Virus record (IMG/VR): IMGVR_UViG_3300020598_000119
Length of the DNA: 64,000 nt
Direction: 5' to 3' (one strand)
Source of the DNA: a virus
Lineage: Duplodnaviria > Caudoviricetes
Below the pieces are notes generated by a model, which saw only the letters and a list, made by a program, of their open reading frames with translations, searched no databases and was not told the origin of the DNA. The position numbers and the translations under genes were made by a program. Below are positions 20,048-50,283 of this stretch, piece after piece (within the stretch, counting starts at the first letter, position 1; each line of letters opens with the position of its first letter).

Positions 20048-20076
20048 TTGTTCGTATCTACGAAATCGGTTATAGC
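20048..20076 (+). promoter_or_regulatory. Putative sigma70 promoter P1 of the Lys leader
   Basis: TTGTTC-N17-TATAGC upstream of the leader ORF. Confidence 0.45.
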
Positions 20077-20103
20077 TATTGAGATAAACGTTAGGAACTC
20101 AAG

Positions 20104-20157
20104 ATGTCCGTCACTTTCACAGCACTCAAACGAAAACTTTGGCACTGCGCGTCATAG
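20104..20157 (+). CDS. Putative attenuator leader peptide MSVTFTALKRKLWHCAS (Lys sensor)
   Basis: SD AGGA; AAA-CGA-AAA codons; followed by terminator/antiterminator and two tRNA-Lys genes. Confidence 0.6.
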   Translation: MSVTFTALKRKLWHCAS

Positions 20158-20183
20158 CGGCAGGATATCCGTTCTCTTTGACC

Positions 20184-20211
20184 AGAGCCGCGATGTCCTC
20201 GCGGCTTTTTT
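20184..20211 (+). terminator. Attenuator terminator upstream of the tRNA-Lys pair
   Basis: AGAGCCGCGA-TGTCC-TCGCGGCT followed by a U-tract; 5' arm can alternatively pair with CATAGCGGC (20153-20161). Confidence 0.75.
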
Positions 20212-20294
20212 AATGCGCAGTGCGAAACCATCCCTCGAATTCGATGGCTTTCGATGCGCTATTTTAGCGCCACGGAACTCCTTTGATTATTGCC

Positions 20295-20362
20295 TAACTG
20301 ATTGAAATTTATATCTTTTTTCTATTTTTGTTGTTGACTTGGTTTTTTGGGTATGCCATATA
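20295..20362 (+). promoter_or_regulatory. tRNA promoter cassette P2 (IHF-like site, T-tracts, -35/-10)
   Basis: TAACTGATTGAAA starts 39 bp before TTGACT-N17-CATATA; same layout at the other two tRNA clusters. Confidence 0.7.
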
Positions 20363-20375
20363 TAGATCATCAAAT

Positions 20376-20454
20376 GGACGCGTAGCTGAGTAGGTTTTAG
20401 CGGGGGACTTTTAATCCCCGTCTTACGTGGGTTCGAATCCCACCGCGTTCACCA
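20376..20454 (+). tRNA. tRNA-Lys(TTT)
   Basis: Cloverleaf; anticodon arm GGGGA-CTTTTAA-TCCCC; GTTCGAATC; CCA. Confidence 0.93.
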
Positions 20455-20458
20455 CTAC

Positions 20459-20535
20459 GGACGTATAGCTCAGTTGGTTAGAGCGGCGGTCTCTTAAACC
20501 GCAGGTCCTCGGTTCGAACCCGAGTGCGTCTTCCA
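20459..20535 (+). tRNA. tRNA-Lys(CTT)
   Basis: GCGGT-CTCTTAA-ACCGC; GTTCGAAC; CCA. Confidence 0.93.
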
Positions 20536-20606
20536 TTTTCCCGCCGATTAGATTCCTGCAAATGCGTGTGAAATAATCAAAGAGAAGAATTTCTCGGAGA
20601 AAAACT

Positions 20607-21842
20607 ATGGTTGTTATTGGCGCAAACGCTGTAAACAATACGTTGTTGATGACTGCGGCCAAACCTGCCATGCAGGCAATGCGAAATGCAGCACAATCTC
20701 AAAGAGGCGAGCAAGCTCGTGAAATTGCTGCTGAGGCCAGCAAAGGCAAACTAATGTCCGGTCTTCCGATTTTCGTGACGCTCGATGAAATTGTGGGGCC
20801 TGACGAAATCAAAGGTCATCTGGTTGTTGATACCTTTGGCGTAAAAGCAGGACAGCGCATAACCCTCAAACAGGCAGACGGACATACGTCCGAGCGCAAC
20901 TCACTAAAGACTGCAATTGCTGGCAACGACTGGGTCGCTCCGCTGGTCAAAGGTGACATCATTGGCTTCGAACGCGGATACGTTGAAAACAATAAAGTCA
21001 TGGTGGGTGCGGTAGCAGCTCGTGTTCACGACAAGCTTTTGGGCGAAGTGCAGGTCATGACCGCAATGACTCGACCAACCAAAGCCGTCGTAAACAAGAA
21101 AGGCGCTTTGCAGTCTGGGATAATAGCTGACGGCGCAAAAGCGATGGTCGTGAATTCAGTCGAAGGCCTTCGCGCCGCTTTTGATCGGATCAGAAGTGAG
21201 CGCTGGCCTGGAGGCAACCCAGGCTTCATCATCCGTGATAACGATGGACAGACCGACACCTTCTTTCAGACCTCAGAGAAGACAATCGATCACCTGATCG
21301 AGGATTTGATTCACGCAGACGTTGCCCCTGCTGCCGATTATTTACTCGAACTGATCCCAGCTTGGTCCCTTCCGATGGGCAAAGAACAGATCGTCAAGGA
21401 CGTAAACCCTAAGAATGAAACAGGCAAGGCCGTCGTTGGAAAATTCAGCTCCCAGTACATGACAGGAAATGAACTCGGCTTTCTACCATCACTGGTGATT
21501 GTATCAATGGAAGAGGAGTGGGCATTTGGAGGCAAAACCGGAAAAATAATTCCAGTTATCTCTTCAATGGCACCTGTCTTCAAACGTGAAGCGGTTAGTG
21601 CAGGGCGTCTTCCAACAAGCAAACGTGCGTATGGTGGAACTCCGAACACAATCCTGAAGCTCTATGACGACGAAGCCCTGAAGCGTATGAACTTCGAACG
21701 CATCAATCGTCGTGGCTATGAAAATCCGGAACCTTCCAGGTCCTCATCGTCAGGTCGGAAGTACGACACGCCTTCAGGTGGTCAGAATGACGATGACGAA
21801 TATGGCCGTCCATCTCCAAGAATGTCTTTCGGCCGGAGATAA
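20607..21842 (+). CDS. Hypothetical protein
   Basis: 411-aa ORF with SD GGAG; ends PSPRMSFGRR. Confidence 0.8.
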   Translation: MVVIGANAVNNTLLMTAAKPAMQAMRNAAQSQRGEQAREIAAEASKGKLMSGLPIFVTLDEIVGPDEIKGHLVVDTFGVKAGQRITLKQADGHTSERNSLKTAIAGNDWVAPLVKGDIIGFERGYVENNKVMVGAVAARVHDKLLGEVQVMTAMTRPTKAVVNKKGALQSGIIADGAKAMVVNSVEGLRAAFDRIRSERWPGGNPGFIIRDNDGQTDTFFQTSEKTIDHLIEDLIHADVAPAADYLLELIPAWSLPMGKEQIVKDVNPKNETGKAVVGKFSSQYMTGNELGFLPSLVIVSMEEEWAFGGKTGKIIPVISSMAPVFKREAVSAGRLPTSKRAYGGTPNTILKLYDDEALKRMNFERINRRGYENPEPSRSSSSGRKYDTPSGGQNDDDEYGRPSPRMSFGRR

Positions 21843-22303
21843 TGATGGAATTGAGCGACACGTCGGAAACCGAGATCGATGATTATACGACTGGCTACTG
21901 CCATGTGCTCGCTATTGCCATTCATGAGCTAACAGGCTGGGAAATGCTCGTCATCCTCGACGATGGCGAGCCGCACTGGATAGACCCCGATGACGATGCC
22001 AACTACATCGCGTCTGCATGCCACGTATTTTGCGTAGATGACGAGGGAATGGCTTGGGACATTCGAGGTCGTCGTCCATTGGCCGAAGTCAAGGATGAAA
22101 TGGAGAATTGGCTTCACATCCAATCCTACTCAGAGGACACATTGAAGTCCGCTGCAGAACTGATCGAAATCTATGTGGATGATGAGTGTGATTTAGAAGT
22201 CGACCGACCGCTTGCGTCTTACTCAGCTTCCAAGCTGGAGGATGCGAAAGTCATCGCACAAAGGTTGCTCGATCAGTTCAACACAGCACCAGCATTGAAG
22301 TGA
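21842..22303 (+). CDS. Hypothetical protein, possible Cys-His-Asp (papain/transglutaminase-like) fold
   Basis: YTTGYCHVLA...CHVFC...WDIRG. Confidence 0.55.
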   Translation: MMELSDTSETEIDDYTTGYCHVLAIAIHELTGWEMLVILDDGEPHWIDPDDDANYIASACHVFCVDDEGMAWDIRGRRPLAEVKDEMENWLHIQSYSEDTLKSAAELIEIYVDDECDLEVDRPLASYSASKLEDAKVIAQRLLDQFNTAPALK

Positions 22304-22328
22304 AAGGGCGCTTGAAGCGCCCTTTTTG
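22303..22328. terminator. Bidirectional intrinsic terminator
   Basis: AAAGGGCGC-TTGAA-GCGCCCTTTTT. Confidence 0.8.
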
Positions 22329-22331
22329 ATG

Positions 22332-49187: not shown

Positions 49188-49216
49188 GTAAGATGCGAGA
49201 AAACATCAAGAAATTC

Positions 49217-49312
49217 ACTGCCGGATGCTCCAACTGGGTTGGGGAGAATCCATAATATGACCTGGGCGCGGCCTGTCGGTCACAAGGTAGGTTCGATTCC
49301 TGCACGGCGGTA
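49217..49312 (+). ncRNA. tRNA-like RNA without a canonical anticodon arm
   Basis: ACTGCCG/CGGCGGT acceptor-like stem, long D-like hairpin, long extra hairpin, T arm GTAGG-TTCGATT-CCTGC; no CCA. Confidence 0.5.
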
Positions 49313-49329
49313 AAGTCATTCACTCATAT

Positions 49330-49405
49330 GGGGCCATAGCTCAGCTGGGAGAGCGCTTGCATGGCATGCAAGAGGTCAGCGGTTCGATCCCGCTTGGCTC
49401 CACCA
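49330..49405 (+). tRNA. tRNA-Ala(GGC)
   Basis: G3:U70; CTTGC-ATGGCAT-GCAAG; CCA. Confidence 0.95.
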
Positions 49406-49621
49406 TATTCCGCGATGAAGCGCCACTATCGGCGATCTCGCATCATTTCTGTCGAAGGCCCAATCGATGGGCAGCCACCAGAGGATTCCGTGAGGAACTC
49501 GGCCGATGAAATCTAGCCCCTCACCAGGGCGGCGAGATCATCAAATGGTCAGTGGGGTGGAAGGTAGCGAAAAAGGAGCTGTGGTGGCTCTTGGTGCAAA
49601 TCCCGCTCGGCAGGCCAATTC

Positions 49622-49696
49622 GGGTTCGTAGTTTAGTGGTAGAACATCGCCTTGACATGGCGAAGGTCGCAAGTTCGATCCTTGCCGAACCCACCA
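49622..49696 (+). tRNA. tRNA-Val(GAC)
   Basis: TCGCC-TTGACAT-GGCGA; CCA. Confidence 0.93.
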
Positions 49697-49712
49697 CGAA
49701 GTTTAACAGTTT

Positions 49713-49787
49713 GCGCGCATAGCTCAGTGGTAGAGCACTCCGCTGATAACGGAGAGGTCGGAAGTTCAACCCTTCCTGCACGCACCA
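49713..49787 (+). tRNA. tRNA-Ile(GAT) copy 1
   Basis: CTCCG-CTGATAA-CGGAG; CCA. Confidence 0.92.
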
Positions 49788-49795
49788 GAATTGAT

Positions 49796-49870
49796 GTCAG
49801 TGTAGCTCAGCGGGAGAGCGCGCGCTTGATAAGCGTGATGTCGCAAGTTCGATCCTTGCCATTGACACCA
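49796..49870 (+). tRNA. tRNA-Ile(GAT) copy 2 (divergent body)
   Basis: CGCGC-TTGATAA-GCGTG; CCA. Confidence 0.9.
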
Positions 49871-49884
49871 GTTATCATAGTTTT

Positions 49885-49960
49885 GGCAGTATAGCTCAGT
49901 TGGTAGAGCGGCGGACTCATAAGCCGTAGGTCGATAGTTCAATCCTATCTACTGCCACCA
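49885..49960 (+). tRNA. Elongator tRNA-Met(CAT) (Ile2 not excluded)
   Basis: Paired G1:C72; GCGGA-CTCATAA-GCCGT; CCA. Confidence 0.85.
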
Positions 49961-49987
49961 AAACATCGTTTCCATTAATGTTGAGAT

Positions 49988-50062
49988 GCTGCAGTAACTC
50001 AGTGGTAGAGTACCTTCTTGGTAAGGAGGAAGCCGAGAGTTCGATCCTCTCCTGCAGCACCA
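49988..50062 (+). tRNA. tRNA-Thr(GGT)
   Basis: CCTTC-TTGGTAA-GGAGG; CCA. Confidence 0.93.
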
Positions 50063-50253
50063 CATTACAAAACCTCCTATTTTCTTCAATTAGTTATTAA
50101 TTGGGTTGTGACCCTAATCCGCAGTGGCGACTGCAGGGCATCATTGGATGCCTGAGTTAACGGAGGTTTTTCTCCTGTTTTATCGGCCCAATATGGGTTT
50201 GGTGAAATACGATTGTTCTCAAAGCACCGACTGGCAAACAAAGCCATAACTTC

Positions 50254-50283
50254 AAAAAGGCGAGCATAGCGCCCGCCTTTTTT
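50254..50283 (+). terminator. Terminator of the tRNA array
   Basis: AAAAAGGCGAGC-ATAGC-GCCCGCCTTTTT. Confidence 0.7.

Follow-up and report, generated by a model that had tools for sequence, protein, structure and literature searches.

Control of bacterial tRNA genes is generally placed at the promoter, where growth rate and the stringent response act. Leader-peptide attenuators are known from amino acid operons: thrL, ilvL (of ilvGMEDA), hisL, trpL, leuL, and pheL each have a promoter-proximal small open reading frame (ORF) with a Shine-Dalgarno sequence (SD) and a run of regulatory codons, together with an intrinsic terminator whose 5′ arm can instead pair with an upstream strand, and in thrL and ilvL a single leader senses several amino acids. 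The pheST leader (pheM) is a leader-peptide attenuator of a translation apparatus component and responds to charged tRNA-Phe, while T-box riboswitches also attenuate transcription by reading the state of one specific tRNA. These systems come closest to what is described here for a 64,000-nt stretch of DNA (IMG/VR record IMGVR_UViG_3300020598_000119; G+C content, 50.4%) that was analyzed as a whole and that we refer to as the window. The window belongs to a giant rhizobial plasmid-like element, in which tRNA clusters are preceded by small ORFs carrying codons that the same cluster's tRNAs read. From the sequence, we consider it probable that each tRNA cluster is headed by a ribosome-mediated transcription attenuator whose control codons are those of its own tRNAs. 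Our search of the full-text literature returned no description of leader-peptide attenuation of tRNA genes, as the original prediction for this DNA had supposed.

Supernumerary tRNAs on mobile DNA have been described in other settings. In Anabaena sp. PCC 7120, the trn array is switched on under translational stress via promoter repeats, with no leader, attenuator, or terminator (PMC8421152). Much as we propose for the present element, the Anabaena trn operon consists of horizontally spread supernumerary tRNAs that are silent or low until translation is impaired, and the RNA ligase gene rtcB is coregulated with it (PMC8421152). Phage and plasmid tRNA arrays with a proposed role in counter-defense (Mycobacterium avium linear plasmids, PMC12803027; surveyed in PMC4758250) likewise place a near-complete tRNA set on a mobile replicon beside tRNA repair and maturation genes.

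Codon-matched leaders ahead of the tRNA clusters

The window carries 19 tRNAs in three plus-strand clusters, on which ARAGORN and Rfam agree: tRNA-Lys(UUU) and tRNA-Lys(CUU) at 20376 to 20535; tRNA-Glu(CUC), tRNA-Asp(GUC), and tRNA-Glu(UUC) at 39056 to 39283; and a big array of 14 tRNAs at 47733 to 50062, serving Asn, Val (two), Gly (two), Ala (two), Met/CAU (four), Ile (two), and Thr(GGU). The layout proposed earlier for these clusters was confirmed in place at all three: a sigma-70-like promoter (P1), an SD, a short ATG-initiated ORF, an intrinsic terminator (T1), a spacer, a second promoter (P2), and the tRNAs, all on the plus strand. Like known attenuators, these modules have a promoter-proximal SD-bearing ORF, a cognate regulatory codon run, and an intrinsic terminator before the putatively regulated genes. 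Each leader ORF has AGGA or GGAG 7 to 13 nt 5′ of its ATG. In the big-array module, P1 (TTGACG, 18 nt, TATATT; 47108 to 47137) precedes an ORF of 40 codons (47177 to 47299) with the run AIAINTINVTANMAGG, and codons 6 to 21 are all read by array tRNAs. The Glu/Asp module has a P1 (TTGACT, 17 nt, TAAACA; 38570 to 38598) whose −35 element is kept in relatives and a leader of 21 codons (38623 to 38688) with the core EERREDD (GAA GAA CGT CGG GAG GAC GAT). In the Lys module, P1 (TTGTTC, 17 nt, TATAGC; 20048 to 20076) was read in the sequence, is weak relative to the consensus, and is absent from the promoter-scan list; its leader of 17 codons (20104 to 20157; AGGA at 20093 to 20096) has the core CTC AAA CGA AAA (LKRK).

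Standard wobble rules defined the cognate codons, and the long ORFs of the window supplied the background codon usage. By this measure 29 of the 39 big-array leader codons are cognate, including a run of 16 (P about 1e-5). The Glu/Asp leader has five cognate codons of 20 (GAA, GAA, GAG, GAC, and GAT), which address all three tRNAs of its cluster (P = 0.11), and the Lys leader has two of 16 (P = 0.24). Among the window's three leaders taken singly, only that of the big array is statistically convincing; the match originally claimed for all three is strong there, modest for Glu/Asp, and no better than background for Lys alone, although it is present in the Lys sequence.

Taken together, the codon-matched leaders are real and lie far beyond chance. 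The nearest genome, Mesorhizobium sp. SP-1A, carries the element on contig 2 (1.19 Mb, of which we analyzed 180 kb), with seven tRNA clusters that are sorted by amino acid and jointly serve all 20 amino acids. The distantly related plasmid pRlX5 of Rhizobium leguminosarum TP16 (NZ_CP140867.1; complete, 1,323,531 bp) carries the same seven clusters, every one with a leader of the same logic and largely different sequence. In SP-1A, the leader RRRF (CGT CGG CGA TTT) precedes tRNAs for Phe, Arg ACG (two), and Arg CCG; the leader run LPHLPHLLPLPYL precedes the Tyr/Leu/Pro/His cluster; QSSQQQSSQSSSSSS precedes the Ser/Gln cluster; and TRTTWTCWR precedes Trp, Thr CGU, Thr UGU, Cys, and Arg UCU. When every leader was scored against every cluster, the true leader-cluster pairing was the single best of 5,040 assignments in SP-1A and likewise in pRlX5. 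We also used a choice-free statistic, the best 8-codon window among all same-strand ATG/GTG small ORFs in the 750 to 800 nt upstream of each cluster, and the true pairing was still 1 of 5,040 in both elements. On this statistic 13 of 14 element clusters score 2.4 to 9.7 (the exception, at 1.1, is the window's Lys leader), while 18 host tRNA loci on other SP-1A contigs, serving as a control, score at most 2.05. Given these pairings in two elements and the host-locus controls, we reject chance as the source of the codon match. The original view of the small ORFs as codon-matched sensors, set before terminators that lead into tRNA genes, is supported, and the match extends over seven clusters in both SP-1A and pRlX5.

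The likeness to tRNA sets would be coincidental if the small ORFs encoded trans-acting peptides or if the units were small RNAs. Certain leader peptides do act in trans (peTrpL), and parts of the present peptides beyond the control run are conserved, such as a ...TTRR end and GRGIVV. However, two independent elements each gave the 1 of 5,040 pairing under an unbiased statistic, the match is at the codon rather than the amino acid level, and the conserved noncontrol parts coincide with RNA pairing strands. Furthermore, the leaders matched no NCBIfam leader family or known protein family, and no Rfam leader family at gathering level. We regard an origin as trans-acting peptides or small RNAs as very improbable.

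The correspondence between leaders and clusters is at the level of isoacceptors, not of amino acids. Arg codons are CGT, CGG, and CGA in the leader before Arg ACG/CCG, and AGA in the leader before Arg UCU. Similarly, the Thr codon is ACC in the leader before Thr GGU, and the codons are ACG and ACA in the leader before Thr CGU/UGU. In pRlX5, the Lys cluster has gained a tRNA-Arg(CCU), and its leader keeps LKRK with an AGG codon two codons upstream, a single case, seen in sequence, of leader codons changing with the tRNAs of the cluster. This pRlX5 leader (locus L057, about 14890) also differs from the window's Lys module in its setting: its ATG shares bases (ATGA) with the stop codon of a same-strand ORF that precedes it, and no P1 is evident. 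The window's Lys leader has a P1 of its own, and the gene upstream of it is divergent. In a separate observation, the N-terminal half of the Tyr/Leu/Pro/His leader (locus L011, 17262 to 17423, in SP-1A; also in pRlX5) is rich in Ala, Gly, Val, Asn, and Ile codons, the set of the big array, and 30 of 54 codons of the pRlX5 Tyr/Leu/Pro/His leader fall in that set. These big-array-type codons could reflect cross-talk or mere composition.

The leaders are conserved in the parts that match their clusters. In eleven relatives the core of the Glu/Asp leader, [D/E]-E-R-[R/E]-E-[E/D]-D, is kept, while the preceding nine or ten residues vary freely. The SD, start, and frame of the big-array leader are kept in 9 homologues, and every indel within the ORF is a multiple of three; cognate residues make up 68 to 81% of these homologues versus a background of 37 to 40%, and substitutions within the run remain in the cognate set (e.g., Ile to Thr). 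The LKRK of the Lys leader is retained in an otherwise different pRlX5 leader.

Terminators, candidate antiterminators, and the second promoter

In the mechanism that we propose, P1 would transcribe a short translated leader whose control codons are those read by the same cluster's tRNAs. With fast decoding, the ribosome would enter the 3′ part of the leader and occupy the strand that could otherwise sequester the terminator, so that the terminator would form and transcription would stop. If cognate charged tRNAs were scarce, the ribosome would stall in the control run, the downstream strand would pair with the 5′ arm of the terminator, and RNA polymerase would read into the tRNA genes. The outcome would be a closed supply-and-demand loop for each isoacceptor group. 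We infer the sign of this switch, from stalling to read-through, from the geometry of the leaders; leader translation and the physiological trigger are likewise putative. A leader of this kind cannot distinguish cleaved tRNA from uncharged or merely scarce tRNA.

All seven leaders are followed by an intrinsic terminator with a U tract, with stems of −12 to −32 kcal/mol. In the window, T1 of the big array (47326 to 47365; 13-bp stem) and of the Glu/Asp module (38748 to 38778) were recovered by the terminator scan and by folding, and T1 of the Lys module (20186 to 20211; 8-bp GC stem, T6, about −15 kcal/mol) was missed by the scan. When transcripts were truncated before the terminator 3′ arm, the 5′ arm paired with a strand 3′ of the control codons in all seven leaders. 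In the big array this strand lies inside the leader ORF (47263 to 47276; AGAAGGG-U-GUC), as indicated by folding and covariation. Its counterpart occupies the same place in the ORF (nt 77 to 100) in nine homologues, at −17 to −20 kcal/mol, with terminator arms taken from the homologous sequences by reading. With a ribosome modeled on the control run, 10 to 12 arm bases are sequestered, versus 0 to 7 with the ribosome at the stop codon. The two sides of the helix change together, from AGAAGGG/CCCUUCU in the window's lineage to GGAGGG/CCCUCC in others, and the terminator 3′ arm follows. In the SP-1A element and pRlX5, the putative antiterminator partners of the Trp/Thr/Cys/Arg and Tyr/Leu/Pro/His leaders occupy homologous places, and cognate partners outscore partners swapped between the Mesorhizobium element and pRlX5 (−197 versus −153 kcal/mol, summed).

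Candidate antiterminator strands were also found by folding in the other two window leaders. The Glu/Asp candidate (38713 to 38723) pairs with the terminator 5′ arm and also with the preceding GGCGGCCGU; the Lys candidate (20162 to 20171) pairs with the terminator 5′ arm and loop, with weak support from shuffles. In simple folding, both alternative pairings are independent of ribosome position. The competing antiterminator that the original prediction placed in every leader is thus well supported in the big array, while the Glu/Asp and Lys pairings are present and nondiscriminating in simple folding. A his-like six-segment model of the Glu/Asp leader (A:B, C:D, E:F versus B:C, D:E) was considered and set aside, as truncated-transcript folding across homologues gave it no clear support.

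Between T1 and P2, the Glu/Asp and big-array modules contain a second SD-bearing small ORF (38821 to 38913, with a strong SD and the acidic start MPKGDDD; and 47384 to 47503, starting MDDDGNG), and another lies upstream of the SP-1A Phe/Arg cluster; the original prediction did not include these ORFs. The N termini of these ORFs (MP plus an acidic run, MDDDGNG, and MRRRRR) are conserved in all relatives, including pRlX5. The second ORFs are probably translated, since their Asp codons vary synonymously (GAC/GAT) in a lower-GC relative. Two of them exceed the first leaders in cognate-codon richness, and the big-array one opens with three Asp codons, for which its cluster has no tRNA.

P2 combines an AT-rich UP-element with TTGAC in a 37-nt motif, which has exactly three matches in the 64 kb, one per cluster, where none is expected. 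Motif search placed it at 20302 to 20362 in the Lys module (−35 TTGACT at 20333 to 20338, −10 CATATA), and motif search together with relatives placed it at 38937 to 38997 in the Glu/Asp module (−35 TTGACG, −10 CATATA) and at 47500 to 47560 in the big-array module (−35 TTGACT, −10 TAACTT). It is conserved ahead of four of the seven clusters (the window's three and Phe/Arg) and in all relatives. In these four clusters P2 would supply basal output, and the attenuator would top up that output rather than act as the only gate; for the window clusters, basal, attenuator-independent output from P2 is likely. The Ser/Gln, Trp/Thr/Cys/Arg, and Tyr/Leu/Pro/His clusters lack P2, and their terminator U tracts end 6, 16, and 135 nt, respectively, before the first tRNA. 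Only tRNAs follow there, which leaves them as the sole possible regulated target of these three leaders. A further conserved motif, TCTTTGACATTG-N3-GGAAACGA (47623 to 47644), is located downstream of P2 and ahead of the big array's first tRNA. It could act as a third promoter or as a site for binding or processing; a similar CTCTTTGACATC precedes the Tyr/Leu/Pro/His tRNAs of pRlX5.

Several findings weigh against the attenuator reading. P2 sits between the terminator and the tRNAs in all three window clusters, and with basal output likely there, the earlier claim that the system induces only the matching module is not supported for the window. The attenuator model does not account for the conserved second ORF that follows T1 and precedes P2. 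The Lys leader, as noted, is by itself not above background in codon match, and the four nonwindow clusters were read in the near-identical SP-1A genome and not in the window's own assembly. When folding was computed at equilibrium with the ribosome masked, the terminators prevailed in all modeled states, an uninformative outcome. The terminator likewise dominates at equilibrium in trpL, and for this reason we modeled truncated transcripts; it is this kinetic model that carries the antiterminator argument. There, the "stalled" and "at stop" states of the Glu/Asp leader are not separated, and a big-array leader left untranslated would antiterminate too. For single antiterminators, the fraction of shuffles at or above the observed value is 0.01 to 0.5, which is modest support. 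Helix covariation, proposed earlier as a check, does appear in the big-array leader, where arm and partner change together and cognate pairs outscore swapped ones, but its permutation rank is only 6 of 120.

Alternatively, tRNA output in the window could come essentially from P2, with the P1-leader-terminator units acting as upstream insulators or as independent small RNA or peptide units whose read-through adds little, and with attenuation mattering only in the clusters that lack P2. P2 looks like a strong UP-element promoter, and its retention before four of seven clusters and in all relatives fits this alternative, as do the very stable terminators and the 164 to 375 nt, with a second ORF, that separate T1 from the tRNAs. 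However, the leaders of P2-bearing clusters equal those of P2-less clusters in conservation and codon match, a translated and cluster-matched ORF would be needless for an insulator, and the antiterminator covariation was found in a P2-bearing leader. We therefore consider output essentially from P2 to be unlikely, though not negligibly so.

It is also conceivable that the leaders link tRNA transcription to translation in a different manner or with a different sign, for example through shielding from Rho or RNase, in which case stalling would lower output, or through general sensing of stress or starvation. Folding does not fix the sign for the Glu/Asp and Lys leaders, second ORFs 3′ of T1 would suit Rho shielding, and the Anabaena tRNA array reacts to general translational stress (PMC8421152). 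Meanwhile, strong canonical intrinsic terminators with U tracts stand behind every leader, the geometry of the big-array, Trp/Thr/Cys/Arg, and Tyr/Leu/Pro/His leaders suits stall-induced antitermination, and the isoacceptor-level match speaks for specific rather than general sensing. Coupling of this other kind appears distinctly improbable to us. Altogether, the attenuator reading is well supported as a design suggested by sequence and unproven as a mechanism.

The element and its RNA-repair genes

The SP-1A copy of the element is 99% identical to the window across the big-array leader region, and its Pnkp-like gene is 94% identical at the protein level. Of the 92 tRNAs in the SP-1A genome, about 47 fall within the element region, in seven clusters over about 130 kb, and the host keeps a full tRNA set of its own besides the element's. 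Homologues of the window's CCA-adding enzyme form a graded series on syntenic contigs, from 84% down to 51% identity, and the pRlX5 enzyme is 48.6% identical. Contigs of relatives were seen in S. meliloti, Rhizobium sp. BK176, R. laguerreae, Neorhizobium, and Agrobacterium. The G+C content of pRlX5 is 62.6%, versus 50.4% in the window, and the regulatory design is kept despite this large shift in base composition and codon usage. Other anchors recovered little. The Pnkp-like protein, searched in 401 Rhizobiaceae genomes, was found only in SP-1A; a megablast of the big-array region against plasmids gave matches of tRNA length only; the zeta-like kinase, searched in genome contigs, led beyond SP-1A just to unrelated kinase homologues without tRNAs; and the CCA-adding enzyme led to two short contigs among metagenome contigs and to nothing among viral contigs. 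Ten window proteins tried against PHROGs matched only DNA and RNA metabolism families and no structural ones, and we rejected a phage identity for the window because of this. Two features of pRlX5 were noted in passing: a permuted tmRNA gene called by ARAGORN about 12 kb from the Lys/Arg cluster (locus L057, 26897 to 27398) and, by eye, a decayed tRNA-Glu(CUC)-like stretch 5′ of the first tRNA-Glu (locus L056, about 21045 to 21120), for which ARAGORN made no call.

The tRNA modules are accompanied by genes for RNA repair. These encode a Thg1-like guanylyltransferase (27194 to 28057), a Pnkp-like kinase-phosphatase-RNA ligase (28176 to 30542), and a CCA-adding enzyme that is divergent from the Glu/Asp leader (37332 to 38588), while a zeta/AAA_33-like kinase and a metallophosphoesterase lie directly upstream of the big-array leader (region 45082 to 47092). 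The tRNA repair and maturation set (27194 to 30542, 37332 to 38588, 45082 to 47092, and 50912 to 51778) also includes an HD-domain protein, and synteny of this set with the tRNA modules holds in every relative. Other genes in the window (3837 to 6368, 11293 to 12369, 17069 to 19345, 22947 to 27190, and 57405 to 63312) encode RecD2, a RecA/UvsX-like recombinase, a class A penicillin-binding protein, MutL, UvrD, a further helicase, and DnaE.

The repair genes and tRNA modules would fit a translation-support or counter-defense island. A link to anticodon nucleases is only suggested, by the neighboring tRNA-repair genes. Extending this, we tentatively propose, as a possible though doubtful scenario, that the seven attenuators together act as a tRNA homeostat that spans the element, resolves isoacceptors, and doubles as a counter-defense. 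If a host or competitor anticodon nuclease, or another tRNA-directed attack, depleted one tRNA species, ribosomes would stall in the matching leader alone and induce only that replacement cluster, and the Pnkp-like, Thg1-like, and CCA-adding enzymes would repair the pool.

Comparison with known systems

We know of no described case in which codon decoding speed feeds back on transcription of the tRNA that does the reading. If confirmed, the arrangement would constitute a direct supply-and-demand loop for individual tRNA groups, made from a classic attenuator, and would account for the way in which giant plasmids and phages adjust the tRNA sets that they carry when their codon usage is foreign or when they face tRNA-directed attack. 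Codon-by-codon sensing of tRNA sufficiency is a long-standing question that becomes testable with simple reporters, and synthetic biology would gain in the leaders a set of existing sensors for how fast particular codons are decoded.

Among described leaders, the big-array leader comes nearest to Thr_leader (RF00506), which aligned over the whole model at 47181 to 47361; with 27.9 bits, below the gathering threshold of 55 bits, we rejected membership in that family. The modules differ from amino-acid-operon attenuators in that tRNAs rather than biosynthetic enzymes would be regulated, in that the codons follow the isoacceptors of the cluster, with up to seven amino acids per leader, and in that seven leaders partition the whole code. 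Unlike those attenuators, four modules also carry a further small ORF and a further promoter beyond the terminator. The pheM leader differs in controlling a synthetase rather than tRNA genes and in attending to one amino acid only. T-box riboswitches bind uncharged tRNA directly and do not need translation; we rejected T-box membership, with no Rfam match at gathering level in the window and none at E ≤ 1 in the two leader regions searched.

Comparison with other tRNA collections leads to a similar picture. The Anabaena trn operon is one array, whereas the modules here partition the code (PMC8421152). The tRNA array unit of Tran et al. calls for a minimum of 20 tRNA genes with a density of 2 per kb or higher (PMC4758250), while the largest block in the window has 14 tRNAs in 2.3 kb and falls outside this definition. 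The reports on arrays proposed for counter-defense describe gene content rather than codon-sensing control (PMC12803027, PMC4758250), and in contrast to those arrays, the clusters of the present element are scattered across about 130 kb and grouped by amino acid.

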